Virus record (IMG/VR): IMGVR_UViG_3300024187_000021
Span: 1 to 28,402 of that record
DNA length: 28,402 nucleotides
Reading direction: 5' to 3' (one strand)
Source: a virus
Lineage: Duplodnaviria; Caudoviricetes
In this document: piece by piece, positions 203 through 16,964 of the stretch
How the letters are laid out: each line of letters opens with the position of its first letter
Position numbering within the stretch: the first letter of the stretch is position 1
The notes under the pieces: generated by a model
Told to the model about the DNA's origin: nothing
The model's input: the letters and a program-made list of their open reading frames with translations, nothing else
Databases searched by the model: none
Program-made: the position numbers and the translations under genes

Positions 203-1433
203 CCGCGTGATCGGTGGTCTCGCCGTCGTACACGTCCGCCTTCTCGCCCTGCAGCGAATGAAAGATCCGCAGCGCCGGGCCCGTCCTCGAGGCCAGCCCG
301 ACCAGCCGGGCCAGTTCGCGCGTCACGCCGGCACTGCCGTTGCTGCCCATGCGGATCGGTTCCGAGATGAACACCGGCCGCCCCGCCTTGTAATACACGT
401 TATTCACGCAGGCGCAATCGAGGACCGTGGCCGCGCCGTCCCGGGGCGTGTGCAGATCCCCGCAACTGCGATCGCCGCCCCAGTCCGATCCGTCTGGGAA
501 CGTCCCCGCGCTCCACGCCGGATCGTCGACGCCATAGTCCAGCGCCGCCACCGGGCAGAAGTCCGGGAACGCCAAAGCATGCGGATTGATGTAGTTGTAC
601 CCCTTCACCCCGCCCTCGTTCGTCGGCTTCAAAATCAGGTTCGGCGCCGGGCGTCCGGCTTCCAGCAGGCCGTTCCATAAATCCCGGCAGGGCTCCGTGA
701 ATTCGTACGCGGGAATCAGCCCGTGGTCTGGAAACGCCACCCAGTAGACGTACATCCCGAACTCCGCGCAGAGCGCCAGGAACGCCGGCCACTGCTCGAG
801 GTAGGCCGGCCCGTACTTCGATGGATCGAACGGGGGCGCCCCGAACAGGTTCGCTTGGACGTTCACGCTCATCCCGAACACCAGCACCACGTTCGCCTGC
901 CACCGGTCCCGCAGCTGCGCCAGCGCCGGCCGGATGTCATCGGCGCCATGCTCTAGAAACTTCCAGTACCCGGCGAAGAAACTGGCCCCCTGCAGGCGGA
1001 CCACCCGCCCCTGGCTGGCCGTCGCCAAGTCCACCCCGGACCGCGTCAGCCGCTCTGGGGCCTCGATCGGCCCCGGGCCTGGCACGGGGCCTGCCCCGCC
1101 CGTCACGCGCGTCAGGAGCTCCACCGGGGGCCTGCTGACGCCATCCTTCGGCACCTCCCGCAGGACGTTCCCATCCCGTGTGAACCGTTCCCACGGCCCC
1201 GGCTGGCCCGGATCCGCCACCGGCCGGGACTCCCAGCGGCCGTCCGGCTGAATCGACAGCCACTGCTGGCCATTCGGGCTCCGCACCGCCACGGTCCCGT
1301 CCCCTTGGTCGATCACCGTCCAGGTCTCATCGCCCCCCTGGGCGTTCACAGGCCGGGATTCCAGCCCCTGGTCCAGATCCCCGAACCGGGCATTGACGAT
1401 GACATTGGCGATCGCCGTGGTCAGTTCAGCCAT
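180..1433 (-). CDS. Fascin/beta-trefoil-like N-terminal module + Pro/Gly linker + clan GH-A (GH5-like) TIM-barrel glycoside hydrolase
   Basis: Start reassigned to MAELTTAI (1433), just after the endolysin stop. ETWTVIDQGDGTVAVRSPNGQQWLS...GPWERF resembles fascin-type repeats. GGAGPVPGPGP linker. TNE and VFISEP are spaced like GH-A acid/base and nucleophile glutamates. Confidence 0.6.
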   Translation of the reverse strand: MAELTTAIANVIVNARFGDLDQGLESRPVNAQGGDETWTVIDQGDGTVAVRSPNGQQWLSIQPDGRWESRPVADPGQPGPWERFTRDGNVLREVPKDGVSRPPVELLTRVTGGAGPVPGPGPIEAPERLTRSGVDLATASQGRVVRLQGASFFAGYWKFLEHGADDIRPALAQLRDRWQANVVLVFGMSVNVQANLFGAPPFDPSKYGPAYLEQWPAFLALCAEFGMYVYWVAFPDHGLIPAYEFTEPCRDLWNGLLEAGRPAPNLILKPTNEGGVKGYNYINPHALAFPDFCPVAALDYGVDDPAWSAGTFPDGSDWGGDRSCGDLHTPRDGAATVLDCACVNNVYYKAGRPVFISEPIRMGSNGSAGVTRELARLVGLASRTGPALRIFHSLQGEKADVYDGETTDHADAYFTGI

Positions 1434-1443
1434 AAGAGTTCCT

Positions 1444-1905
1444 CTATTCGAAGAGCCGCCGGACGCCCAGCACCTGGCTGACGGGGAACGGCGCCAAGGA
1501 CACCGCGTTCCCCTGATTCCCGGCCAAGACCTGGACCCGATCGCCCTGCAGGCCGCCAAAGAATCCCACGTGCCCGGGCGCTTGCAAAACATCCGGCCCC
1601 GGCTGCTGCCCGTCGCCCCGCTTCAGAATCACGATATCAAACCCGACTTCCGCATCTGTCAGGTCGATCGCCCGGCCCACCTGCAGGTTCGACCGCGCCG
1701 CCAGATTCTTCGACCGCGGCAGCCGCAGCAGGTGGCAGACGAAGTTCACGAACGCCGAACACCAGGCCACTTCGTCATGCGCCGGCCAACTGACGTCCAG
1801 CTGCAGCATCGCCAGGATGAACGGGCTGTCTTGGTCGCCCGGCAGTTCCTTGATGCCCACGAACCGCTGGGCCAGATCGAAGGCTGTGATTTCAATTTTT
1901 CTCAT
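1444..1905 (-). CDS. TIGR02594-family (CHAP/NlpC-P60-like) cell wall peptidase, probable endolysin
   Basis: Motifs DEVAWCSAFVN, GHVGFF and VLAGNQGNAV (Cys-His catalytic pair); located in the lysis region. Confidence 0.9.
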   Translation of the reverse strand: MRKIEITAFDLAQRFVGIKELPGDQDSPFILAMLQLDVSWPAHDEVAWCSAFVNFVCHLLRLPRSKNLAARSNLQVGRAIDLTDAEVGFDIVILKRGDGQQPGPDVLQAPGHVGFFGGLQGDRVQVLAGNQGNAVSLAPFPVSQVLGVRRLFE

Positions 1906-2266
1906 GGGTCAGCATCACCCGTTCCAGGACCCCGAGCCGCCGTTCGCAATCCCGCAGCATCGCATCGATCGCCGCCTGCCGTTCCATCTGGGCCCCGATC
2001 CGTCCCTGCATCTCCGTCCCGTGTTCGCTGGCTTTTTCATGCAGGCTCCGAATCTCGGTCCAGAGCCGATCGAACTCTTCCTGGACCCGGCTGGCCCGTT
2101 CCTGCCGCAGCGCTTCCGATTGCAGCAGCAGCGCATCGTCCCAGATGCCGTTCTTCGGCCGGGGGGCGCTCCGCCGCTCGAGCTTCGCCGCCAGCAGCCA
2201 CGTCGCCGTGACCACCGCCTGCAGCACGGCCCACCCGAACAGCAGCCACCCCCGCAGTGATTCCAT
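1892..2266 (-). CDS. Membrane-anchored coiled-coil protein, holin-like candidate (124 aa, MESLRGWLL...)
   Basis: Start reassigned to ATG 2266. One N-terminal hydrophobic helix followed by a charged coiled-coil; overlaps the endolysin start. Confidence 0.65.
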   Translation of the reverse strand: MESLRGWLLFGWAVLQAVVTATWLLAAKLERRSAPRPKNGIWDDALLLQSEALRQERASRVQEEFDRLWTEIRSLHEKASEHGTEMQGRIGAQMERQAAIDAMLRDCERRLGVLERVMLTHEKN

Positions 2267-2289
2267 GCACCCTAGGTCTCTCTCTAAAA

Positions 2290-2406
2290 TTAGCGCAGTA
2301 ACTGAATGGCTTCGATGATCGCCGTCGCGCAGGACACCCAGAAGAGCGCCACCAGCAGCCCCCGGAAGGGCCGCCAGCGCAGCAGGTCCGGCGGGGGGGG
2401 CCTCAT
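2290..2406 (-). CDS. Small single-TM protein, 38 aa (MRPPPPDLLRWRPFRGLLVALFWVSCATAIIEAIQLLR), not in the ORF track
   Basis: ATG overlaps the upstream TGA (ATGA); hydrophobic core; fills the gap in the lysis cassette. Confidence 0.55.
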   Translation of the reverse strand: MRPPPPDLLRWRPFRGLLVALFWVSCATAIIEAIQLLR

Positions 2407-2901
2407 GCCCCACCGCCCCGCAGCAGCGCCAGGGGCGCCCCCAGCAGCCCCAGGACGCCCACCACCAGCCCGACGAGCCCCACCGCCCAGCCATAGCCGT
2501 CCCGGGCCCCCTGGCGGGCGGAGACCGTCCCCGCTTGCGTGGCCTTCACTTCGTCCACCGGTTTCGTCAGTTGCACGATCTTCTCGTTCAGGCCCACCTG
2601 AATCACCAGCACTTCCGACCGGGGAATAAAGGTGCGCTGCTGGTCCCCCAACTGCTGCCGGAATTCGTTCACCCCTTCGAACCGCTTTTCCGTCGCCGCC
2701 TCCGCCTTCACCACGGCCCTGTCCAGCGCTTCAAACTTCGTATCACTCAGTTTCTGCTGGGCCACCAGCGCCGTCCCCAGCGCCTGTTCCGAGGCCGCGA
2801 ACCGCTGTTCGTTACCGCTGGTCCGCCGCCGCGAAGAGCGCCAGGACGTGTTCGAGCGCCGTATCCACCGACCAGCGTGGGACGCGCGTGCTATCCGTCA
2901 T
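2403..2901 (-). pseudogene. Coiled-coil protein with C-terminal TM helix (lysis region), interrupted by an apparent 1-nt insertion at ~2813
   Basis: ATG 2901 overlaps the upstream stop and reads MTDSTRVPRWSVDTALEHVLALFAAADQR-TAA. Removing one A (TAAC to TAC) gives DQRYEQRFAASEQALGTALVAQQK, continuous with ORF 2403-2765. Confidence 0.7.
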
Positions 2902-3203
2902 TCAGCCTTATGAGTCGGAACCGGCACGGGCACCAATTCCAGCTTGTCCGTGATCTGGTAGCCAGCCGGCGTCACCGAGGCCACGTACTGCTGAAGCGCC
3001 GCCTGAGCCTTCTGATACTCACTGGTCGCCTGCTGCGCGCGCAGTTGCCAGATTTCCACGTCCTTCGCCGCGCTCTGAATCGTCAACTTCTGCACGTCAG
3101 TCAGCGCCGGTACCTTCTGGCTGGCGCTCGTTTCCTGCCCATGAAGCACCGAAAATAGACCGACGACGACAACGACGACGATGAGCCAATAGATGCGTTT
3201 CAT
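2898..3203 (-). CDS. Signal-peptide or TM-anchored coiled-coil protein, 101 aa
   Basis: MKRIYWLIVVVVVVGLFSVLHG|Q N-terminus, Gln/Ala-rich helix; stop overlaps the next start. Confidence 0.8.
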   Translation of the reverse strand: MKRIYWLIVVVVVVGLFSVLHGQETSASQKVPALTDVQKLTIQSAAKDVEIWQLRAQQATSEYQKAQAALQQYVASVTPAGYQITDKLELVPVPVPTHKAE

Positions 3204-3219
3204 GGATTGATGATGTCCC

Positions 3220-4530
3220 TTAATTCGTGGCCCGATACTCGAACCGAACCGTTAAGCCAGTTGTATTTGTCAAATCTCCGGTAACCAAAAAAGCACTGGC
3301 GGTCCCGGCCGTCTGTCGCCCGACGATATATGCCGCAGTGCCGTTCGGCAACACATAAGCCGCGAGAGACATCCATGTTGTATTGAACCCGCTGAAATAC
3401 GACACAAGGCCGGCCACGTTAAGACCGGCAATGTTCTCGGCTGTAAAAGGCAACCCCTGCACCTGCACGTTTCCGGTGATCGTGCCCTTCGCGGTGAGGT
3501 CTATTTCCGCATAGGCCGTGACAAACCGCCCAATCTTGACGTAGCGGCCCAGTTGCGTCCCGTACGTTTGCCCGCTCGTTCCACCATCGCCGCCGATCAC
3601 CGGCGTCCATGATCCTTCTTCATAATCATCGAGCGTGTTCACATCCGCCGACGCATTCTGGGAAGCCGGGAACTTGAATTGCCCCGCAGATGCGCCGGAC
3701 GCGTCCACTAATCCCAGCGGGGACAAGGCGCCGGTCACGCTCACCGTCGAACTAAACGTCGCCGCGGCTGCCGCAATCGTCCCAGTCATCGTCGGGCTGC
3801 CACTTTTGACATAGTTCCCGGTGCCGGTGATTGCCGCAGTGGTCAGCGCCTTACTGCCGTCGAGCTCGAGCGTCTGGGATGCGGTACCAGACGAGAACAC
3901 AGGCGCCGCCGTGAATGTGGCCACACCCGTCACGCCTAGTGTCCCGCTCAGGGTTTCGTTCGCGCCTCCAATCGTCCCCGTCAGCGTGGGGCTGGCGCTT
4001 TTCACATAGTTGCCGGTGCCAGTAATCGCCACGGTAGTCAGCGCCTTGCTGCCGTTCAGTTCGACGGTCTGTGAGGCCGTGCCGGATGAAAAGACCGGCG
4101 CCGCGGTAAACGTCGCCACACCCGTGACGCCCAGCGTGCTGGAAAACGTCCCCGTGGTGGCCGCCAGGCCACCGTTTAATGTCTGCAGCCCCGTGAACGT
4201 GTTCGTGCTCAGGCTGGCCAGCGTCGACGGAATTGTGAGGTTCGCATCGGGGATCGTCCACGTCCGCGTGGTGCTGGTACTCAGGCCGGACAACTGAAAC
4301 GCCAGCACCCGCGTGGGGTTCGCATCATCCGCGATCAGCCCGAACGCATCAGATAGGGGCTGACTCGCCGCCGAAGGCGCCGTGCAGACGAAGTTTGACG
4401 CGCCGGAATTCCAGATCAGCGTGTAGCCGTTCGAACACGCCGGCACGGGGGATGGCACGATGACGGCCTGGGCATATACCGCCTGGGCCAGCGTCAGCAG
4501 TGCAGCAACAATCAGCAGGATGCGCTTCAT
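3220..4530 (-). CDS. Tail fibre / receptor-binding-like protein with predicted signal peptide
   Basis: Thr/Gly/Ser-rich shaft. C-terminal NTLDDYEEGSWTP...GRYVKIGRFV motif typical of phage fibre tip domains. Located at the end of the tail module. Confidence 0.8.
   Translation of the reverse strand: MKRILLIVAALLTLAQAVYAQAVIVPSPVPACSNGYTLIWNSGASNFVCTAPSAASQPLSDAFGLIADDANPTRVLAFQLSGLSTSTTRTWTIPDANLTIPSTLASLSTNTFTGLQTLNGGLAATTGTFSSTLGVTGVATFTAAPVFSSGTASQTVELNGSKALTTVAITGTGNYVKSASPTLTGTIGGANETLSGTLGVTGVATFTAAPVFSSGTASQTLELDGSKALTTAAITGTGNYVKSGSPTMTGTIAAAAATFSSTVSVTGALSPLGLVDASGASAGQFKFPASQNASADVNTLDDYEEGSWTPVIGGDGGTSGQTYGTQLGRYVKIGRFVTAYAEIDLTAKGTITGNVQVQGLPFTAENIAGLNVAGLVSYFSGFNTTWMSLAAYVLPNGTAAYIVGRQTAGTASAFLVTGDLTNTTGLTVRFEYRATN
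3775..4137 (-). repeat. Intragenic duplication, period 195 nt / 65 aa (TLGVTGVATFTAAPVFSSGTASQT.EL.GSKALTT.AITGTGNYVKS.SPT.TGTI x2)
   Basis: Copies at ~3970-4137 and ~3775-3942; near-identical protein with many synonymous changes. Confidence 0.92.
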
Positions 4531-4542
4531 CAGGTTTTCCTA

Positions 4543-6960
4543 TTAAAAACAGTCCGTGATAATCCCGCGCTCGATCACGATCGTGCTGGGGCTGGAACAG
4601 GTGCCATCATAGCCGTTCGTCTTGCGATACATGTGGCCTTGGCCGGTGCTAAACACCATCGGGTAATCGTTCGACGTCGTGGTCGAAGGGCTGAGGTAGA
4701 TATCCCCACTGGCGCGCACCGTCCCTTGAAGGTACACGCTCGATCCCGTCAAAAACGCATCGCCACTGGTGGCCGCCAGGATGACATCGTGGCCAGCCGT
4801 CAACGTGAAGGTCGACCCATTCGTATAGATTTCGGTGCCATCCGTCCACCGCAGCATGTTCGCCGTGCCCGATCCAGCTGTGAGCAGAAACCCACTCCCA
4901 TCCATCGTCAGCGCGCCGCCGCCAGCCGTGATCGTTGAACCGCTGATTGTCACGCCCGTGATCGTGCCAGCCGTCACCGTGCCCATGTTCGCGGTGATCG
5001 CATCCAGCGTCGATACGTTAATCTTCGAGGCCGTCACCGACCCCGCCGCCAGTTCCGTGGCCGTGATCGTGCCCGCGGCAATCTGTGAGGCCGTGATCGT
5101 GTTCGCCGCGATCTTGGCCGCCGTGATCGTATTCGCCGCGATCTGTGTGGCCGTGATGCTGCCGGTGGTGATATTCCCGCCAGCGATGCTGGTGATGCTG
5201 GCCCCGTTCCCCGCCAGCGTGCCGGTGATCGTCAGGCTGGTCCCGTTCCACTGCAGGGCGCCGCTCGAGCCACCCAGATAGAACCCGCCCGTGTTGTCCA
5301 TGTAGGTTTTCCACGCCGCGCTGGCGTAGTACCCTAAATGATCCGACCCGAGGAAGAGCCCCGACCCGCTTGGCGTGGCCGTATGCGGCAGCAAAGGGTT
5401 CCCGTTGCTATCGATCCCCAGCAGCCCGCGCGCCGCGCCGCTGTTCACCGTCGCGCCTGGCACACCCAGGACAGACGAAGCGTCGATACTGGTCCCGGTC
5501 ACCACGATGTTCCCCGCCACGGTCAACTGCACGCCGTCCCAGGAGATGATCTGCGTAGATCCCGATGGGTCTCCGCAGCGCCACTTGAACACGCCCGCAT
5601 CGAGCCCAGACCAGCAACCGGTCCCGCTGGTGTAGGACGTCGGCGCCGGCGTCCCCATAGAAAAGTAGGGCGTCAGGTGGTCCAGCGCCATCACCTTCGT
5701 ACTGCCATTCCACAGCGCCAGATCGACGCCGTGTAGGTCCAGCCCTTCCGTACTGGCCTTGATGTACCGGCCGTTCGTCGCCGCGTACGTGCCGAAGATG
5801 CAGCCGTATTCCCCGGTCACGCTGGTGATGCCCCGCAGGTTCCCGCAGCGTTCGCGCACGGTCTGATTCGCCGCGATCGGCGTGTCGCCGGACCACGTGA
5901 CGATCTGGGTATAGGGAGAGTTCACGCCGTACAGGCCGTCGATCGCATTGACTTCCGAAAACCCGTTCCCGCTGACGCCATAGTCCAGCACCAGCGCATC
6001 CACCGCGATCACCGTCCCGGTGGTCATCGAGCCGCCGTTCGCGATCGCCCGCGTGAACTGCCAGGTCTGCAGGCCGTCCGCCAGATCCGCGTAGCTGGTG
6101 ACCGTGCCCCAGCCATCCGTGATCGTCAGGCTGCCGCTGGCCCGTGAGAATGTCCGAATCCGAATCGCATCGCCGCTTTCAAACACCGCCATGTCAGGGG
6201 CACTGGGCAGGTCCTTGACCGTCAGCGTGCTGATCGACCCTGGGGCCGGGACCGTGAAGGGCGCCCCCACCTGGGCCACGCTCTTGGAAATAATCTGGCC
6301 GCCAGCTAGGGCCTGTTCCAGATCAGTGATGAACGATTTCGCGATCAATTCATCCGTGTAAAGGTATCGGAAATCCGCCGCGCCGGTCTGATCAATCCGC
6401 CAGCCGGTGGTCTGGGACGCGAAGCCGGGCTGGCCAATGTAACCATCCACGTCCGCGTTCCCGACGCCCGGATCCAGCGTGGACGCCTGGCCAATATGGA
6501 CACCGCCGCCCTGCAGTTGCGTCGGCCCCCCGAACACCTTAGCAGGGATCCAGCCCGTCCCGTTGTACGCCTCCACGTGGCCGCCATCGGTGTTGGCGAA
6601 GGTCCGCAGCGTGTAGGCATGGTCCGTACGAAGTTGCTGCTGGAAGAGAGTGGTGTCCAGCGTCAACTGGGCCGCCACGCAGCCGGCAAAACTCGAACAG
6701 GGCGCCGACGTCGGGCCCACCATCCGGTACCAGCCCGTGGTGCCAGCCCCAAGGATTTTTTTATAGATCAGCCCCGTGGCCGTATCGTGCCAGAGGTCGC
6801 ACGGGTTCCCCGCCTGGACGCCTTCCGGCGTCCCGCTGCCGCTCCGCTCGTAACAGGGCCCGTGGTTCAGCCGAATCTGATCAGCCGCCACGGTCTGGGC
6901 GCCGGCGCTTGTCGCCGCCAGCAGAAGCCCTGCCGCCATCAGTAGCATTCTTAGTCTCAT
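4543..6960 (-). CDS. Large tail tip / central fibre-like protein with predicted signal peptide
   Basis: Follows the hub gene (ATGA overlap). GSGTPEG...DLWHD motif, ITA..IAA decamer repeats and LDAITANMGTVTAG segment seen in phage tail tip/fibre proteins. Confidence 0.8.
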   Translation of the reverse strand: MRLRMLLMAAGLLLAATSAGAQTVAADQIRLNHGPCYERSGSGTPEGVQAGNPCDLWHDTATGLIYKKILGAGTTGWYRMVGPTSAPCSSFAGCVAAQLTLDTTLFQQQLRTDHAYTLRTFANTDGGHVEAYNGTGWIPAKVFGGPTQLQGGGVHIGQASTLDPGVGNADVDGYIGQPGFASQTTGWRIDQTGAADFRYLYTDELIAKSFITDLEQALAGGQIISKSVAQVGAPFTVPAPGSISTLTVKDLPSAPDMAVFESGDAIRIRTFSRASGSLTITDGWGTVTSYADLADGLQTWQFTRAIANGGSMTTGTVIAVDALVLDYGVSGNGFSEVNAIDGLYGVNSPYTQIVTWSGDTPIAANQTVRERCGNLRGITSVTGEYGCIFGTYAATNGRYIKASTEGLDLHGVDLALWNGSTKVMALDHLTPYFSMGTPAPTSYTSGTGCWSGLDAGVFKWRCGDPSGSTQIISWDGVQLTVAGNIVVTGTSIDASSVLGVPGATVNSGAARGLLGIDSNGNPLLPHTATPSGSGLFLGSDHLGYYASAAWKTYMDNTGGFYLGGSSGALQWNGTSLTITGTLAGNGASITSIAGGNITTGSITATQIAANTITAAKIAANTITASQIAAGTITATELAAGSVTASKINVSTLDAITANMGTVTAGTITGVTISGSTITAGGGALTMDGSGFLLTAGSGTANMLRWTDGTEIYTNGSTFTLTAGHDVILAATSGDAFLTGSSVYLQGTVRASGDIYLSPSTTTSNDYPMVFSTGQGHMYRKTNGYDGTCSSPSTIVIERGIITDCF
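5020..5172 (-). repeat. About five 30-nt/10-aa tandem repeats (SITATQIAAN/TITAAKIAAN/TITASQIAAG/TITATELAAG/SVTASKI)
   Basis: GCCGTGATCGT recurs at 30-nt spacing on the + strand; typical of trimeric beta-helical fibre shafts. Confidence 0.9.
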
Positions 6961-8387
6961 TCGAGGTACCCCACGCCCGCCACGTCGGTGTCCGCCAAGG
7001 ATGGCAGCAATTCTAATTGGTAGATTTTAGCCCCGTTCGTCAGCACCACGGTGAATTGTTCGGTCTGGAACGTCGCACTGGCCACCACCCCACTGGTTCC
7101 GACCACGAGGTTGTCCGAGACATTCCGCAGCCGAGCCCGGACCGATCCCGCCGTCGCCCGCAGCCGCACCGTGACCGTGGCGATGTTGCTGCCGCGCGCC
7201 ACGGTGTCCAGCGCCACCTGCATCCCGGGATCCGCCGGCGTGCCATCCACCGGGATCCAGCCGGGTCCGTTCGATTGCACATATTCCAGCGCGCTGCCGC
7301 CAAGGAAGAATGCCTGACGTCCGGGGCCGGCCGTCGCCGGAATCGCCACCACCTGGGAAATCCCAGACGACCAGAGCTTGTACACATCGCGCCAGCTGCC
7401 CTGGTAAATCGACCCTTCTACGGCCACCACGCGCCGCAGGAAAAGAGAATCCCCGACCACCGAGAGGTCCACGCTGACGATCAGGAAGGTGTTATTGATA
7501 TTGCGACTGGCCGCGATGATCGTCTGGGTCTGCCCCGCCTCCACGCCCTTCCGCAGCGTCTGATACTCCACCGTCGCCGGTAGGGGCGTACTCTGCACCA
7601 GCAGTTCGTCCGCCAGCGCCTGGGCCACCGTCACGTCCGTGGCCGTAGGCGCCGCGATCACGGTCTCCACCAGCCCGTGGGCCGCTTGTTCGCCCGCATC
7701 GTTCGCGATCGCCGTGATCGGGATGTCCGGCGATCCCCCGCGCACGATGACCCGGTTCGCATAGCGCCGGCTGCTGTTCACGCGGGACCGGTGAACCGTC
7801 AGATCCCCCACCGTGTTCCCATCCCCGGTGGTGATGTTGAACGGGGCCGCATGGGCCCCGATCGCGAACATCGTCAGCACCTTAGCCGCCGTGATGCGCC
7901 ACACATAGGCCCCGGACGTCAACGATACGAGCTCGTTCAAGACATCGACCAAGGGCCGATAGTCGTATGTCAATTCCGGCAGCGCTGGGCCATCGACTTG
8001 GCCAGGATCGAGCGTGACGCCATAGGTGGCCAGGTATGTCACCAGCACCTGCAGGGCCGCCTTCAGCGTCCCGGCGGGGATGACATCCTTCACCCACCGC
8101 TGATCGGCCAGGCCGTTGAAATCCGTCACGGACAGACGTGACGCGATGTCGGCCAAGGGCTGATCGCCGGCCCCGGATTCCACAATGTCATCGACGGTGC
8201 CACCAAAAATCGTCACGCCGTCCTCGATCACCACCACTTCGTCATCGAGTTCCGGCCGGTAGGCGCCCAGCAGCGACACGATTTCACACCCCAAGGTCGA
8301 TCGGCCATTCGCCGGCGCCGCGAATCCGAACCGTGACGCCTGGACCCGGCGGGGCGTCCCCTCAATGGTGACTTCGTAGCTCATCAC
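6957..8387 (-). CDS. Tail tip / baseplate hub-like protein
   Basis: Directly after the tape measure gene (start GTG 8387 or ATG 8384). IFGGTVD and YANRVIVRG motifs typical of hub/Tal-like proteins; extra C-terminal beta-rich domain. Confidence 0.75.
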   Translation of the reverse strand: MMSYEVTIEGTPRRVQASRFGFAAPANGRSTLGCEIVSLLGAYRPELDDEVVVIEDGVTIFGGTVDDIVESGAGDQPLADIASRLSVTDFNGLADQRWVKDVIPAGTLKAALQVLVTYLATYGVTLDPGQVDGPALPELTYDYRPLVDVLNELVSLTSGAYVWRITAAKVLTMFAIGAHAAPFNITTGDGNTVGDLTVHRSRVNSSRRYANRVIVRGGSPDIPITAIANDAGEQAAHGLVETVIAAPTATDVTVAQALADELLVQSTPLPATVEYQTLRKGVEAGQTQTIIAASRNINNTFLIVSVDLSVVGDSLFLRRVVAVEGSIYQGSWRDVYKLWSSGISQVVAIPATAGPGRQAFFLGGSALEYVQSNGPGWIPVDGTPADPGMQVALDTVARGSNIATVTVRLRATAGSVRARLRNVSDNLVVGTSGVVASATFQTEQFTVVLTNGAKIYQLELLPSLADTDVAGVGYLE

Positions 8388-10519
8388 GCCAGCCTTAGAC
8401 GCCGCAGTTCACCGGGCAGCATGGGAATGAAGGCCCGGGCCAGTTCGCGCCCGTCCAGCATCAGGACCACCGGCACATCGCTCCCGCTGCCGGCGCCAGC
8501 GATCTGAGACAGACGATCCAAAGGGATCACCGCTTCCGGCACGTCGCCCACCACCGCCAGCCGGGGCTGGGTCAAAATGCCCCCAGATCCGAGTACCGGA
8601 ACGTCCCCGAAATCGTGTTCCCCTGGCAGTACGCCTCGAGCGCCGCCGGTCAACTGGTCGATCGCGCTGCTGGCCTGCTTAAACTGGGCGTCCGTCTTCG
8701 CGTCGAACACCGCCTGGATCAGCTGCCGCGCTTCCTCGCCGCCGTGACCAGCCGCGCCCAACTGGTCCCCGACGTCCTGGACGCCGCGGCCGCCGAACCA
8801 TTTATCCCGTTCCGGGTTCACCACGGTCCCTTCTTCACCGCCCCGGAAATGATTCACCAGCGCCATGACGCCCTGGACCGCCATCGCTGCCGCGGCCGCC
8901 CAGCCCGTGATCGACGACATCGCACTAGACAGCGTCTTCCCGAGCCCGCCAAACATGCCCTGAAATCCCTGGGTCATCCCGGGTCCCGATCCCAGCAGCG
9001 AATTGATCGCGCCCTTGATGAACTTATTCACGAACGATCCCAGTAGTTCGTTGATCAGGGAATGCCAGATGTTCTTCATCGTGTCGCTAAAACTCTGCGT
9101 CCCCATCAGCATTTGCGTGAGGTTCCCAGATACTTGATTGGCTAGGCCCTGCCATGCGATACCGTGGGATTTCACGCTGGCCGCCGCACGCTGCTGGGCG
9201 TTGTCGATGTCCACCCCTGCCGCCGTGATCTGATTTCCGAGCGATAGTTCATTCTGCCGAATGCTCTCCAGCGAAGCATTGATATCGTTTCCGGCCGCCA
9301 CGATCGAATCAGCCGTGTGCAGGAATGCCAGGTTGATCTGGAACCCGGCTTCCATGATCTGGGACGCCAGCTGCGCCGCCTGGTCCTTGTCGATCTGGGC
9401 CTGCATGGCCGCGAAGACGCGATCGGTTTCTTCCTGCAGGTCCAGTTCGGCCTGGGCCAGTTCCTCGATGGCCTTTTTGGATTTATCGGTGGCTTTCGCC
9501 TGTTCGTCGTAATTCAGGTTCAGGGACGCCATCGACTTGCTGTGCGTGTCCACCACCTTCGTAGACGCTGCCGTCGACGTCGTAAATTCATTGACGACAT
9601 CCTTAGCGTGCTGCACGTCCGCCGATAGCGTCTTCACGTTAAAGGACGTGTTCCCCAGCAGACGCCCGAGGCCGGGGATTTTTTCCGCCGCTTCCGCGAT
9701 CGTCAGGAAGAATTCCAGCATCCCGACCCGGAGTTCCAGCACGGCCTTGATGATGAAATCAAAGGCCCCCTGCGCGCCGCTGATTGCCTTCGGCAAGTTT
9801 TCCCCGAGCCATAGGGAGAGTTCCGTCAGGATCGGGACCAGTGGCGTCAGGACGCGCCCGATTAAGGATTGCCCCACCAGTTCCAGGGCATGCATCGAAT
9901 CCCCAAACTTATCGCCCGCCTGGACCGCGTCCTCGCTCATGACGATCCCGAGCTTGTCAGCCTCCGCGGCCGTTTCAGACAGGTGGTTCGTCAGGACCGG
10001 CAGCAGTTCCGCGCCGCTCTTGCCGAACAGATCCATCGCCAACTTCGATCGCGCCATCGGGTCCTCGATCTTCGCGATCGCGTCCCCGATTTTGGCGAAG
10101 GCCACGTCCGGCGCAGACGTCCGGATGTCCTGAAACGACAGGCCCAGTGCGTCCAGGGCCCCCTTCGCGCTCTTGTCCTCACCGGCCAGGTTCTTCCCCA
10201 GCTTGCTCACGGCCGCCGTGACCGCGTCCAGCGAACTGCCGTTCTGTTCCGCCGCATACTTCAGCCGCTGTAGCGCTTCCGCCCCGATCCCGGTTTTCAA
10301 TTCCAGGTCCGTCAGGCTGCTGGTCAGTTCGGTGTATTTCGCTATGGCGCCCGTGATCGCCGCGACAGAAAAGGCGGCCGTCAGGGATGACAGGATGGTG
10401 CTGCCGGCCTTCGAGACCTTCCCGGCCAGCTGTTCCGTGGCGTCCGCGCCGCGGTTCACCGCCGTGGTCAGGCCGGTGATGTCGCCAGCGATTTTATAAA
10501 TAACGCTGAGGTCTGACAT
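8384..10519 (-). CDS. Tail tape measure protein (711 aa)
   Basis: Ala-rich helical protein. TGIGAEALQRLKYAAEQNG and AMDLFGKSGAELLP motifs; C-terminal GGIL...VGDVPEAVIPL motif. Confidence 0.95.
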   Translation of the reverse strand: MSDLSVIYKIAGDITGLTTAVNRGADATEQLAGKVSKAGSTILSSLTAAFSVAAITGAIAKYTELTSSLTDLELKTGIGAEALQRLKYAAEQNGSSLDAVTAAVSKLGKNLAGEDKSAKGALDALGLSFQDIRTSAPDVAFAKIGDAIAKIEDPMARSKLAMDLFGKSGAELLPVLTNHLSETAAEADKLGIVMSEDAVQAGDKFGDSMHALELVGQSLIGRVLTPLVPILTELSLWLGENLPKAISGAQGAFDFIIKAVLELRVGMLEFFLTIAEAAEKIPGLGRLLGNTSFNVKTLSADVQHAKDVVNEFTTSTAASTKVVDTHSKSMASLNLNYDEQAKATDKSKKAIEELAQAELDLQEETDRVFAAMQAQIDKDQAAQLASQIMEAGFQINLAFLHTADSIVAAGNDINASLESIRQNELSLGNQITAAGVDIDNAQQRAAASVKSHGIAWQGLANQVSGNLTQMLMGTQSFSDTMKNIWHSLINELLGSFVNKFIKGAINSLLGSGPGMTQGFQGMFGGLGKTLSSAMSSITGWAAAAAMAVQGVMALVNHFRGGEEGTVVNPERDKWFGGRGVQDVGDQLGAAGHGGEEARQLIQAVFDAKTDAQFKQASSAIDQLTGGARGVLPGEHDFGDVPVLGSGGILTQPRLAVVGDVPEAVIPLDRLSQIAGAGSGSDVPVVLMLDGRELARAFIPMLPGELRRLRLA

Positions 10520-12738: not shown

Positions 12739-13103
12739 CAGCCCACCTTCGCCAAGGTATCCAGCGCGATGCCTTCACGCCGGCCGATGTGCTGGGCCGA
12801 TTGAATCCGATACACACGGCCTTCGTACACCAGCCTCCGCGCCTTCGGGACGTCGATCACGTCAGGGTCCATGTCCGCCCGGTACGGAATCTCCCACCGC
12901 GTGTCCGCGCTGGCCGAAAACTGATCCGCCATGAACCGTTCGCGCCCTGAAATATTCTCTTTCGACGCGAACACGTCATCCAGCGCGTCCCACGTTTCCA
13001 CCGGGAATCTGGACGACCCTGGTTCCATGCTCTGCAGCGCTTCCAGCCGGACCACGCGATCCCGCCGGCCGCTGGCCATCGGCCGTTCTGCCGCTTTTAC
13101 CAT
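12738..13103 (-). CDS. Head closure / head-tail adaptor (SPP1 gp16-like)
   Basis: GRRDRVVRLE, SGRERF.A, IPYRAD, RLVYEGRVYRI motifs. Confidence 0.92.
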   Translation of the reverse strand: MVKAAERPMASGRRDRVVRLEALQSMEPGSSRFPVETWDALDDVFASKENISGRERFMADQFSASADTRWEIPYRADMDPDVIDVPKARRLVYEGRVYRIQSAQHIGRREGIALDTLAKVG

Positions 13104-13852
13104 CCGGACGCCTCGCCCGCCGGGTCATAGCGCCACTGGCGCCCCGCAAATGGCTTGTCGTTCCGAATGCCCTTCGAATGCAGCGAACTCTGATCCCCGA
13201 CGTGCTGGACAAAGTACGGGTGAGTCATCACACCAGGCACGTTCGGCCAGCGCAGCAGGGCCCACGTCGCGATCAGCTTGTCGAATCCGATTGTCGGATC
13301 GGTCAGGGCCACGTACTTCCGGCCCCAGGGCGCCAGCCGCACCCAGTCCCGCAGGTGGGCCCGGCCCCAAGCGATACAGTCCAGCGCGTCGTCCGTCCGC
13401 AGCAGAAACACCTGAGATCCCCGCAGGCTGGCTAGGGGCCAATCGTAGGCGTCCACGGCCGATCCCCGTGGGGGCGTGGTGAACCCGAAGCACCGATAGA
13501 CGTGGCGATCCGGCCGCTGGTGCCGTTGCAGCCAGCGCGCGCAGCTGCCGGCGAAGTCCGCACAAAAGACCAGATCGTCTTCTAGCACCGCGATCCACGG
13601 CTGGCCGTCCGCACAGGCCGCCGCCATCGCCTCGAGGCCGTTTTCGTTCGCCCCGATCCGCTTCGCCGGCACGATCAGCCGGGGCGTGGACAGGCCCTCG
13701 AGCGCCCGCTCGAGCCAGTCCAACTTTGGCGCCGTCACCGCCAGATGCAGCCGCGTCAGGTCGAACCCCTGAGCCGCCAGCCCCGTCAACGTAGCCCGGA
13801 GATAATTCGGCTTCGGCGCCCGGTTCGCCGTCCGCATCGCCCACGCGATCAT
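13097..13852 (-). CDS. GT-A fold glycosyltransferase (GT25/GT2-like)
   Basis: Start reassigned to MIAWAMRT (ATGA overlap). IAVLEDDLVF metal-binding motif, FD, and PYFVQHVGDQS C-terminal motif. Confidence 0.8.
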   Translation of the reverse strand: MIAWAMRTANRAPKPNYLRATLTGLAAQGFDLTRLHLAVTAPKLDWLERALEGLSTPRLIVPAKRIGANENGLEAMAAACADGQPWIAVLEDDLVFCADFAGSCARWLQRHQRPDRHVYRCFGFTTPPRGSAVDAYDWPLASLRGSQVFLLRTDDALDCIAWGRAHLRDWVRLAPWGRKYVALTDPTIGFDKLIATWALLRWPNVPGVMTHPYFVQHVGDQSSLHSKGIRNDKPFAGRQWRYDPAGEASGW

Positions 13853-14574
13853 GCGCGCGCCTCCACTTCCCGCCACCGCTCGATCAGCCTGGGCAGCGTC
13901 TGCATCCGGCCCGCGCTGACCAGCCTGGCGTTCCCGATCAACGCCTCACGCAGCGCGCCCTTGATATGCACGATCCGGGTCAGGCTGGGATCGAACCGGC
14001 CCCATTCGCTGTCCTCACAGTTCCATTCCCGGCAGGGCAGCTGCACGATCGCCGCGGCCGACGCCACGGGACGCTTCAGCGTGGTGGCCAGCGCCGCCTG
14101 GTCGCACGCGCCAAACTGCCGCCGCGCCTGCTGCATCTTCGCCGTCGATGTCCGGATGACCTTGGTATCCTCGAGCCAGGCATGTAGGAACGCCCGCGTG
14201 GCCGGCGTGGCCCGCACAAACAGCACCCCGGCATTGTGCGGCAGTTTCGATCGCGCCGGGTCTCGCTTCGTGTATGCGACGTCGAACGGCCGGTCCCACA
14301 CATCGTCCAAGGGCCGCAGGATCAGACAGTCCGCATCGATCAGGAGTAGTGGCGTCCCATCTGGGGATTCATCGACCGCCTTCACCCACTCCGCCAGCTT
14401 CACACTGCTGTTCCGCACCCGGGCGTTCACTGTGACTTCCTTGACGTCGAAGAGCCGCCTCGCCACGATCTGCCGATCCCAGTGCGGGCAATGCTGGGCT
14501 GCCGAGGCCGCCAGGACCCGCGCCATCCGGGCATAGAGCGCGCCGTCGTAACAGGCGATCAGGCGGGGCGTCAC
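13849..14574 (-). CDS. Nucleotide-diphospho-sugar transferase (GT-A; GT8/GT34/GT77-like)
   Basis: LLIDADCLI (DxD), HNAGVLF, DQAAL, LPCREWN, IVHIKG motifs. Confidence 0.85.
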   Translation of the reverse strand: MTPRLIACYDGALYARMARVLAASAAQHCPHWDRQIVARRLFDVKEVTVNARVRNSSVKLAEWVKAVDESPDGTPLLLIDADCLILRPLDDVWDRPFDVAYTKRDPARSKLPHNAGVLFVRATPATRAFLHAWLEDTKVIRTSTAKMQQARRQFGACDQAALATTLKRPVASAAAIVQLPCREWNCEDSEWGRFDPSLTRIVHIKGALREALIGNARLVSAGRMQTLPRLIERWREVEARA

Positions 14575-15182
14575 TGGCGCCGCTCCAATACCAGCAGACC
14601 GCAGGCGTCGTCATAACTCGCCGCGATCTGCCAAGACCGATCCCGGATCATCAGCGCATCGACCGCAGGCCGGATGCCTAGCGCCTTCCGCCGAATCCGA
14701 TCGTCGTCATGTCGCACCAGTCTGTGATCTTGGTCCTTCGTCCCTTCGCCAATGGTGCCGCGCCAGATCGAATCATGGAACACTAGCCACCGCCCCACGC
14801 TGTCCGCATGGCGCCGGAGCTCCGCGTCACATTGGAGATACGTGTGCAGCGAATCCACGAACAGCAGGTCGCACGGCTGGACGGGCGCCTCGAGGCTGCT
14901 GCCGTGGTAGTACGTCCAGCGCGATCCCGCCAGCGCCTGCAGCCGCCGCGCTTCCGGGGTTTCCGTGATGTCGTAACTGATCACGTGCTGGGCGCCCAGG
15001 ATCAGAGCCGACGATGACGCGCCGCGCCGGACGCCGAATTCGATCGCCAAGGGCAACCCCTCCGCCAGCGCCCTGAGCCGCGGCAGGTGGGGGCCGGTAT
15101 GGCCATCGTTGATCCGTTGCGCGTACGCGTACCAGTCCTCGACGGACGCCAGCGTGGATGGATAGACGATCTTGGTCTTCAA
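14571..15182 (-). CDS. Class I SAM-dependent methyltransferase (Methyltransf_24-like, probably a sugar O-methyltransferase)
   Basis: Start reassigned to TTG 15182 (TTGA overlap). IEFGVRRGASS, SYDI, DLLFVDSLHTY, LVFHD motifs. Confidence 0.85.
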   Translation of the reverse strand: MKTKIVYPSTLASVEDWYAYAQRINDGHTGPHLPRLRALAEGLPLAIEFGVRRGASSSALILGAQHVISYDITETPEARRLQALAGSRWTYYHGSSLEAPVQPCDLLFVDSLHTYLQCDAELRRHADSVGRWLVFHDSIWRGTIGEGTKDQDHRLVRHDDDRIRRKALGIRPAVDALMIRDRSWQIAASYDDACGLLVLERRQ

Positions 15183-15814
15183 GACGCCACCGATTCCCGC
15201 GCCACGTCCAGCGCTTGATCGAGGGGCATCCGCGGGAAACATTTCAGCGCCGTCCGACCGGAACAGTTGATCACGTCGATCCCCTGATCCTTTAGGGGCT
15301 GGACGATCGTGTCGAACTTGCGAATGAAGATCCCGAAGGGGGACACGCGATGTCGGGGATGTTTCCCGTGGAAATGCGCTTCACCCTTCGGGCCCGTCTG
15401 CATGTCATAGCCCAGCAGGATGATCCGCTTCGCGCCGAAATGCACAGCCAAGTTCAGCGCCTGATAGCCACTGTTCCGGCCGGTCCGCAGCGTCGACGGG
15501 TCCAGCGCCAGGCCGTCTGTCCCGCCGTTCCGGAGAATCTTCACGCCCCACCCGGCCGCGCCGGCGGACACGCTGTACCGCAGGCCCGCGAACCCGATCG
15601 CGCCCTTGTGCCACTTCCACCATTCCAGATCCGCCGCATAGAGCGCCGTCGCCCAGGGCGCCAGCGTGTATGCCGTGTTCACCGCGATCGCCGCGTCGAC
15701 GCGCCCGCGGCAGAGCTCCACATCGTCCGCCGTCAGGCTGGGCCCGGATGCGAAGCACACCACCAGCCCGTTCGGGGCCAGGCGCGGGACGGTGGCAAAT
15801 CGTTCCTTGGTCAT
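15179..15814 (-). CDS. DUF115/Maf/MptE-like protein with a sialyltransferase-like (GT29/GT42-type) Rossmann fold
   Basis: ASGPSL, IAVN, NSGYQALNLAVHFGAKRIILLGYDM, HFHG.H, VINCS motifs. Confidence 0.75.
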   Translation of the reverse strand: MTKERFATVPRLAPNGLVVCFASGPSLTADDVELCRGRVDAAIAVNTAYTLAPWATALYAADLEWWKWHKGAIGFAGLRYSVSAGAAGWGVKILRNGGTDGLALDPSTLRTGRNSGYQALNLAVHFGAKRIILLGYDMQTGPKGEAHFHGKHPRHRVSPFGIFIRKFDTIVQPLKDQGIDVINCSGRTALKCFPRMPLDQALDVARESVAS

Positions 15815-16173
15815 CGTGCGATCGGATCCCGATACCGTTTCAGCAGCGCCACCACCGTGGGCGCCAAATAGCCCGCCTCACGCTTCGGGCCTTCCCCGTC
15901 ATCCCCGCGGAACCGGTAGAGTTCCGCCAGCTGGATCAAGATGGCCGCCGCCACAGGACCCGGGACGTTCTGCACAGTCCAGGCGGCCATTTCAGCCGTC
16001 CAGGCCGTATCGTCCGGCCGCTCGAGGTACTGAACGATCAGCGCCGTGGCCTGATCCAGCTTCTCCTGGACGTCCAGTTCACCGTTCGTCATCGGGGACG
16101 ACACGCCCACCGGCAGCCGCAGGTGCCGCTGCGCTTGGCTCAGATCGATCAGATCCGCTGGGCTGCCGCTCAC
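15811..16173 (-). CDS. Head-tail connector protein (HK97 gp6-like)
   Basis: LIDLSQAQRHLRL, VAAAILIQLAELYRFR, ALLKRYRDP motifs. GTG at 16173 overlaps the upstream TGA (alternative start 16176). Confidence 0.92.
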   Translation of the reverse strand: MSGSPADLIDLSQAQRHLRLPVGVSSPMTNGELDVQEKLDQATALIVQYLERPDDTAWTAEMAAWTVQNVPGPVAAAILIQLAELYRFRGDDGEGPKREAGYLAPTVVALLKRYRDPIAR

Positions 16174-16964
16174 CACTTCCTGCCTTTATCGTCCATCTGG
16201 GTCAGGTCCACGCCGTCCCGCCCGTTCACGCCCGGGATGCCCTGGTGGCCTTGTGGGCCGGCCTTGCCGTCCCGGCCGCGGCTGACGCACAAGGTCCAGG
16301 CCGTGGGGCCAGCGCCGGGGACGTCCGCCGTGTCCCGGTCCGCGTGCCACTGGGCGCCGCCCTTCGTCACCACGTCGCCCTGCTGGTATGTCCGGCCCGG
16401 TTCGTACACGCCCCGATACAATTGCACCGGGATCCGGAAGGTCTGTTCCTTCGTCCGGCTGCCGTTCGTGAACCGGAAGGTGAACGATCGCAAATCATCG
16501 CCCTGCACCACGGTCAGATCCTCGAGCCCGAGGCCGTCCGCCCCGTCGCGCCCGTCCTTCCCGTCCATGCCCTTCTCACCCGCCGGCCCTGGCAGCCCGT
16601 CCCGACCGTCCCGGCCAGGCGTCCCAGCAGGCCCCGCTGGCCCCTGGGGGCCGTCCATGCCGGTGGCACTAGGTCCCATCGGCCCATCCATACCGCGTTC
16701 ACCCTGAGCGCCTGGGGCGCCTGCTGGGCCACGCTCCCCGGCCGGCCCAGGCGGACCCGGCAGCCCGTCCAGTCCGCGCGCACCGGGGGCTCCGGCGGGG
16801 CCTTCTGGCCCCCGTTCCCCAGCCGGTCCAGGTTCCCCCTGGGCGCCGTCCCGCCCATCCCGGCCGGCCACGGGCGCCCGTTCCTCGAGCGCCTTGACGC
16901 GCGCCTGCAAGGGGTCATAGAGCCCCTTGATCGTGGCTAGGATGTTGTCGAACAGCTTATCCAT
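16170..16964 (-). CDS. Collagen-like head/neck-associated protein with a C-terminal CBM5/12-like module
   Basis: About 35 Gly-X-Y triplets; YRGVYEPGRTYQQGDVVTKGGAQW...WTLCVSRGRDGK domain; AGAAGGA Shine-Dalgarno. Confidence 0.85.
   Translation of the reverse strand: MDKLFDNILATIKGLYDPLQARVKALEERAPVAGRDGRDGAQGEPGPAGERGPEGPAGAPGARGLDGLPGPPGPAGERGPAGAPGAQGERGMDGPMGPSATGMDGPQGPAGPAGTPGRDGRDGLPGPAGEKGMDGKDGRDGADGLGLEDLTVVQGDDLRSFTFRFTNGSRTKEQTFRIPVQLYRGVYEPGRTYQQGDVVTKGGAQWHADRDTADVPGAGPTAWTLCVSRGRDGKAGPQGHQGIPGVNGRDGVDLTQMDDKGRKW
16536..16865 (-). repeat. Collagen Gly-X-Y repeat region (21 + 14 triplets, one GPSAT interruption)
   Basis: Counted directly from the translation, aa 34-143. Confidence 0.92.

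Follow-up and report, generated by a model that had tools for sequence, protein, structure and literature searches.

Why would three consecutive genes in the late operon of a siphophage open with what look like export signals, when the accepted view, to our knowledge, is that tailed phages assemble their particles entirely in the cytoplasm? The question is raised by the IMG/VR virus record IMGVR_UViG_3300024187_000021 (Duplodnaviria; Caudoviricetes), which was analysed at its full length of 28,402 bases, called the window below. Its minus strand is a siphophage late operon in the order terminase, protease-capsid fusion, portal, head-tail genes, lambda-like tube, tape measure, hub, three leader-bearing genes and likely lysis genes. 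The tail operon is of the non-contractile type, and a complete set of head and tail genes surrounds the leader genes, whose products are of 805, 436 and 101 amino acids (aa). Our analysis indicates that the two larger products are probably fibres, which would be exported by Sec, folded with disulfides in the periplasm and docked onto the tail at or after lysis. The leaders, the Gln, the cysteine pairing, the order of the genes, the hub fold, the hub-fused leaderless sisters and the co-occurrence of a hub jelly roll with leader genes are observed; we infer export, pyroglutamate, disulfides, trimer state, docking partner and timing. As a particle this is a siphophage of the usual kind, and the novelty lies in the route.

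Leaders on three consecutive late genes

The original prediction had described three consecutive open reading frames (ORFs), each beginning with a basic-hydrophobic leader followed by Gln. All three lie where it put them, on the minus strand (Table 1), and the Gln is at residue 22, 21 and 23 of the 805-, 436- and 101-aa proteins, respectively. Signal peptides were called by a home-made rule (hydrophobic stretch, then a small residue and Gln) and by eye. The leaders have a basic n-region, a hydrophobic h-region and small residues at -3/-1, and the top 9-residue N-terminal hydropathy of the three proteins was 2.68, 3.56 and 3.68 in the same order, versus 0.23-1.92 in 16 other late-operon ORFs. 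The fibre-like identity that the prediction had given to all three stood for the 805-aa and 436-aa proteins but failed for the 101-aa protein, which looks like a short coiled coil instead.

Conservation of the leader in homologues had been named beforehand as a test of the predicted signal peptides, and the leader is kept in both fibre families. The 805-aa protein gave 447 matches, and the best 120 of the 447, query included, were analysed: 76 had leader and Gln, 6 had a hydrophobic stretch alone and 38 had neither. By eye, the 6 hydrophobic-only N-termini are not leaders and seven of the 38 look N-terminally cut. The +1 Gln was present in 76 of the 82 hydrophobic N-termini among these best 120, and the same rule applied to hub homologues returned 3 positives in 108, all false by eye. 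For the 436-aa protein, 120 homologues were listed; its N-terminal domain recurs in 25 of them, 24 of which carry leader and Gln, while 77 of the other 95 have neither feature. The C-terminal domain of the 436-aa protein is common in leaderless viral proteins, and the loci found with this protein mostly match that domain and were set aside. The leader sequences vary, yet the n/h/c character and the A-x-A-type site are kept, and the leader forms of the 805-aa family share a short strand just after the Gln, with a loose motif in 52 of 76.

It could still be that the leaders are unused for the virion form, either because translation starts internally and yields a cytoplasmic isoform or because these N-termini are not signal peptides. 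Both fibre genes do contain an in-frame GTG, at codon 24 (805 aa) and codon 25 (436 aa), and the signal call rests on our own rule. No conserved internal start was found across 25 loci, however; a start codon fell within the first nine mature codons in 10 of the 25, at scattered positions. The leaders also keep their character and cleavage site while their sequence varies, and cysteine pairing tracks the leader, as described below. We therefore regard unused leaders as very improbable.

The core of the 805-aa protein and its leaderless relatives

The 805-aa gene directly follows a gp27-like hub gene, and its start codon overlaps the hub stop. Its product has a conserved core and a low-complexity shaft (residues about 580-710), on which the PHROG tail-fibre matches (1e-10) fall. 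Eleven of the 120 homologues also match the window hub and have no leader. In the ten fusions examined, a single chain runs from hub residues about 1-340 into the fibre core, with core identity of about 46-64%. The fused form was seen at loci L014, L017 and L054, where the next genes are leaderless. A quick tree was computed from the core in 117 rows, after removal of 3 whose coverage was short. In it the fused forms are scattered among the leader forms and require 4 changes, at least 2 of them forced by well-supported branches; therefore switching or module exchange has recurred on this quick tree, with no claim as to direction (fission or fusion).

Among cultured phages, the core matches Salinibacter phages only (5 records, tblastn against phage records). 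The match to the long tail fibre of Salinibacter phage M8CR30-2 is at 35% with E 1e-21; that fibre is leaderless, 1954 aa long and encoded directly after a minor tail (tape-measure-like) gene. In the supplement of PMC5776456 it is labelled 'Structural protein (LC)', a virion protein found by liquid chromatography-mass spectrometry (LC-MS). Because the core is hub-fused in 11 homologues and present in an LC-MS virion protein of Salinibacter phage, the shared core of the 805-aa protein is, by homology, a tail-tip domain. The predicted monomer of the 805-aa protein (pLDDT 73, pTM 0.42) matched the siphophage tail tips of JBD30, Chi and R4C at a middling Z of 7.7-8.6 and the phi92 spike at Z 7.1, which is consistent with a tail tip, not decisive for it. 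The S74 chaperone domain, which adds support for a tail-tip identity, was found by Pfam on 2 leader-bearing homologues of the 805-aa protein. It is precomputed for 13 relatives of the 436-aa protein, 11 of which have leader and Gln, and Pfam confirmed it in 4 of 4 scanned of these 11.

Cysteine pairing in the leader forms

The cysteines of the 805-aa protein are at residues 36, 54, 88, 94, 372, 387, 449, 462, 788 and 804, and those of the 436-aa protein at 32 and 49. The counts given at the outset were right (ten as five local pairs, one pair, none in the tape measure and one in the hub), but the contrast with tape measure and hub did not survive as evidence, since the density is ordinary: 10/805 compares with 6/463 in the portal and 7/569 in TerL, and density was rejected as an argument. 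Co-variation is more informative. In the leader forms, Cys36/54 are both present in 49 sequences, single in 0 and both absent in 7; Cys372/387 are both present in 5, single in 0 and absent in 69; Cys449/462 are both present in 31, single in 2 and absent in 41 (n=74), and both occur in 0 of the 36 leaderless forms aligning there. The total number of cysteines in the mature chain is even in 66/76 leader forms, versus 19/38 leaderless forms and 48/108 hubs. Cysteine counts among the homologues range from 2 to 14, and therefore pairs were gained and lost many times, although the sequences share ancestry and do not count as independent. The 436-aa family has Cys49 in 24 of its 25 members and Cys32 in 9; in 14 the first cysteine is seemingly displaced by a few residues (by eye). 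The co-variation, seen in leader forms only, is the pattern expected of disulfides and exceeds chance, as judged from these alignments.

A candidate dock on the hub

The hub model (mean pLDDT 90.9) shows the four-domain hub fold, with VIA Z 21.8 and root-mean-square deviation 3.8 over 300 aligned residues to 3cdd_A and Z 20.4 to 1wru_A. Behind this fold the window hub carries a C-terminal jelly roll, for which no meaningful PDB sequence match was obtained when it was searched alone. Fifty viral loci were selected via the hub and gave 29 distinct hubs at 85% identity. The jelly roll is present in 12 of the 29 (the L069 row is not a jelly roll and was dropped from the alignment), and in 12 of these 12 the hub is followed directly by a leader-bearing gene with Gln. 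Where the jelly roll is absent (17/29), the next gene was readable in 14, of which 1 had leader and Gln and two had doubtful hydrophobic starts. The exception to the co-occurrence is L292 (10001-13166), in which a 1304-aa hub-fibre without jelly roll precedes a 170-aa gene with leader and Gln. In the fused hubs the match ends at about residue 340, and the jelly roll is absent.

A second architecture was found in the prophages of genomes G098, G327 and G169. There the jelly-roll homologue is a separate leaderless protein of 190-195 aa (in G098, HMM E 1.4e-10 and hhalign 94%), encoded directly before a 234-253-aa gene with leader and Gln. This arrangement is seen at L338:12626-13914 (G098) and also at L329 and L330, in a different tail architecture. 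The hub jelly roll is accordingly put forward as a candidate dock for the exported fibre.

Proposed route and its alternatives

In the route that we propose, the 805-aa and 436-aa fibres would be translated from the late operon and exported by Sec. Their leaders would be cleaved before the Gln, which would be cyclised to pyroglutamate. The fibres would be oxidised and trimerised in the periplasm, perhaps with the help of the 101-aa protein. The rest of the tail would be built in the cytoplasm, and the fibre would bind the extra C-terminal jelly roll of the hub once lysis mixes the compartments.

The exported proteins might instead never join the virion and act as decoys, or as the receptor blockers or adhesins that the original prediction had allowed for, while the jelly roll, which has a CBM/TNF-like fold (carbohydrate-binding module, CBM), serves as the receptor binder of the virion. 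In Bdellovibrio, S74 fibres with a leader serve as cell adhesins, according to PMC10769870, and the Q-rule proteins of Porphyromonas phages are read as possible outer-membrane modifiers in PMC10367356. Several observations have weakened this alternative, which we consider unlikely. The genes are inside the late operon, with the fibre start overlapping the hub stop, and no other tail-fibre gene is found between the hub and the lysis genes. The core is one that alternates between a hub-fused form and a form with leader. None of the three leader proteins, nor the hub, is named by Pfam or NCBIfam, and these reveal no outer-membrane anchor or secretion domain. Finally, leader-bearing proteins are annotated by mass spectrometry (MS) in other virions: gp085-087 of Cellulophaga phage phi18:3 (KC821620) and gp091-094 of phi10:1 (KC821618) have leader and Gln and are annotated as MS/MS virion proteins, while the other MS-annotated proteins translated there (8 in phi18:3, 2 in phi10:1) have no leader by eye.

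Another alternative accepts both export and the virion but has the fibres joined before lysis at the inner membrane, either through a slowly cleaved leader that acts as a tether while tails assemble against the membrane or by re-entry of the mature fibre through holin lesions. The leader, cysteine and co-occurrence data fit it too, and inoviruses do build their virions at the membrane from Sec-inserted proteins. Against it, a translocated mature chain, including the conserved N-terminal strand, would be in the periplasm and beyond the reach of a leaderless hub, and hub, tube and tape measure are all without leader. We hold this joining before lysis to be improbable.

Docking at or after lysis remains the reading that we prefer and consider likely, and several points weigh against it. 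The pairs 88/94 (both 19, single 6) and 788/804 (both 6, single 6) co-vary less cleanly than the others. The 805-aa model finds middling fold matches (best VIA Z 8.6, at a pTM of 0.42), and the one Foldseek PDB match at E<=0.001 was the T5 tail tip at TM 0.06. In fold the jelly roll comes close to carbohydrate-binding modules and TNF-like lectins (Z 9.7 to 8xmz_B, 9.0 to 9ib6_A), so that it could bind the receptor for the virion and leave the exported proteins dispensable. The counts that link jelly roll and leader are not independent of ancestry. The dock named here is a candidate for the large fibre, and the 436-aa protein has a homologue next to that fibre at just 1 of the 21 loci mapped. 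The Cellulophaga proteins, from unrelated phages, serve as an analogy, and their detection by MS could be due to co-purification.

If the route is correct, a step of particle assembly is added outside the cytoplasm, and infectivity would depend on host Sec, signal peptidase, and disulfide and glutaminyl-cyclase enzymes. One may speculate that the fibres might thereby be kept from cytoplasmic anti-phage sensors. More broadly, and with confidence only a little above even, we picture a siphophage family in which head, tube and hub are cytoplasmic and all host-recognition fibres are secreted, disulfide-locked, pyroglutamate-capped and plugged into a portable dock at lysis, with repeated switching to and from a fused fibre and with a possible exchange of fibres between co-infecting phages after lysis. 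The value of the lineage is that one domain occurs in it side by side in exported and hub-fused versions and that a small candidate dock can be named. For phage annotation, signal peptides should not rule out virion proteins.

Features of the window and neighbouring genes

Table 1. Coordinates of the features discussed, numbered from the first base of the window.
Feature	Position	Strand	Remarks
805-aa central fibre/spike-like protein	4543..6960	-	leader 1-21, Gln22, N-domain 22-165, shaft, five local Cys pairs
Predicted Sec/signal peptidase I leader of the 805-aa protein, A-G-A/Q	6898..6960	-	from sequence; character conserved in homologues
Core domain of the 805-aa protein, residues about 167-490	5491..6462	-	beta-barrel and long antiparallel sheet; hub-fused and leaderless in sister phages
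436-aa second fibre-like protein	3220..4530	-	leader 1-20, Gln21, Cys32/49, repeat shaft, C-terminal domain
101-aa small protein	2898..3203	-	predicted leader, likely coiled coil
476-aa tail hub	6957..8387	-	leaderless; gp27/Mu gp44/Tal fold at residues 1-346
Hub C-terminal jelly roll, residues about 355-476	6957..7325	-	behind flexible linker; candidate dock for the exported fibre
Tape-measure protein	8384..10519	-	leaderless; context; 0 Cys

Export is likely for the 101-aa protein as well. Its relatives at the loci studied (18 rows including duplicates) keep the leader by eye, not always the Gln, and also keep a C-terminal GY-x-LDL motif. An Asr match on its leader was below cut-off and was ignored. 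Its coiled-coil-like character recalls an i-spanin, but the relatives show cleavable sites, and no ORF with a lipobox, as expected of a spanin lipoprotein, was seen in 1400-3250. It may be a periplasmic fibre chaperone or a lysis helper. The 436-aa protein gave no sequence match to a solved structure. The ESM Atlas returned unnamed viral clusters only. A lipoprotein-like gene (LLAAC) is found between two fibre genes at L001:12676-13185, and a similar one follows the fibre in L298.

The tape-measure gene abuts the hub gene (8384-8387) with no distal-tail (Dit-like) gene between, as in several related loci. Four genes on the minus strand at 13097-15814, between the head-tail adaptor and head-closure genes, include weak glycosyltransferase, methyltransferase and MptE-like matches (PF03407, PF13578, PF01973; all under cut-off) and one gene without a match; they possibly serve virion or fibre glycosylation. 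A leaderless collagen-repeat protein with a weak CBM5/12 match is encoded at 16170-16964 (minus strand), between portal and adaptor, and is a possible head fibre. After two membrane-protein genes, the minus strand also encodes a 416-aa enzyme-like gene (180-1430) and a TIGR02594-like gene just under cut-off (1444-1905), which are likely the lysis cassette.

Host

The host is likely a soil member of Acidobacteriota, to judge from related loci. A broken copy of the fibre adjoins a tape-measure homologue in an Acidobacteriota metagenome-assembled genome (L111), and the record of one hub homologue names a Vicinamibacterales bacterium. At L111:10001-11455 the fibre homologue lies in several frames upstream of the tape-measure-like gene, as either a decayed prophage or assembly errors would produce. 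Of 401 genomes in the likely host class, 8 were matched by the fibre profile and 10 by the hub profile, and one genome of that class (G056) has tape-measure, hub and leader-bearing genes with Gln. The remaining 23 genome loci that contain the core are spread over many phyla; a leader was called in none of them. Within the likely host class, 63 of 101 genomes had a glutaminyl cyclase (PF05096) over cut-off, and VKOR was found in 56 of 61. In 240 kb of an Acidobacteriota genome (G001), 6 of 34 rough leader calls gave Gln; by this noisy estimate Gln, near-fixed on the fibres, seems to be kept more strictly there than is the habit of the host. Several host leaders of that genome (L311-L322) end before Gln, a possible partial Q-rule outside Bacteroidota.

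Comparison with known systems

No description of exported tail fibres was found in the literature, most subscription papers and bioRxiv supplements lying beyond the search, and the probable two-compartment assembly route was not found in print. Work on DsbA (PMC13412088) concerns host receptors, not fibres.

A close tail architecture is that of the Tal/gp27/Mu gp44 hubs with a central fibre, such as T5 pb3-pb4, lambda J and Salinibacter phage M8CR30-2, to which the window is alike in hub fold and in the position after the tape measure. It differs in that its fibre is a separate gene with leader and paired cysteines and in that its hub gains a terminal jelly roll. The MAT proteins of Bdellovibrio combine a signal peptide with a phage-like fibre, an S74 chaperone in many members and disulfides in the tip domains, as described in PMC10769870. 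These are chromosomal adhesins of a predator cell, whereas the window genes are in a phage tail operon; no match to the MAT N-terminal domain (a conserved beta domain of about 130 aa after the leader) was seen and no MAT protein was among the listed fold matches, no direct comparison having been made.

Leaders that expose Gln are known from Bacteroidetes, for which the Q-rule is described as specific (PMC5837995, PMC10653852). The Q-rule proteins of Porphyromonas gingivalis phages have signal peptidase I leaders exposing Gln and a function given as unknown, and they were not read as virion parts (PMC10367356). The window differs from these in its likely Acidobacteriota host, with a PF05096-type cyclase. 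The Cellulophaga proteins are like those of the window in being encoded by successive late genes and in having basic-hydrophobic leaders that stop just before a Gln, and unlike them in their Bacteroidota host and few cysteines (0-3). They were not matched in the tblastn search of the 805-aa protein against phage records; the records give no export route, and no paper was found that remarks on those leaders.

In phage T4 all fibre steps are cytoplasmic and leaders are not known to be involved. The long fibres of T4 are made separately and attach to finished particles, according to PMC3004832, and this makes late docking plausible for the window fibres. New at this locus are the leaderless hub-fused sister, the leader-linked cysteine pairing within one domain and the named candidate dock.

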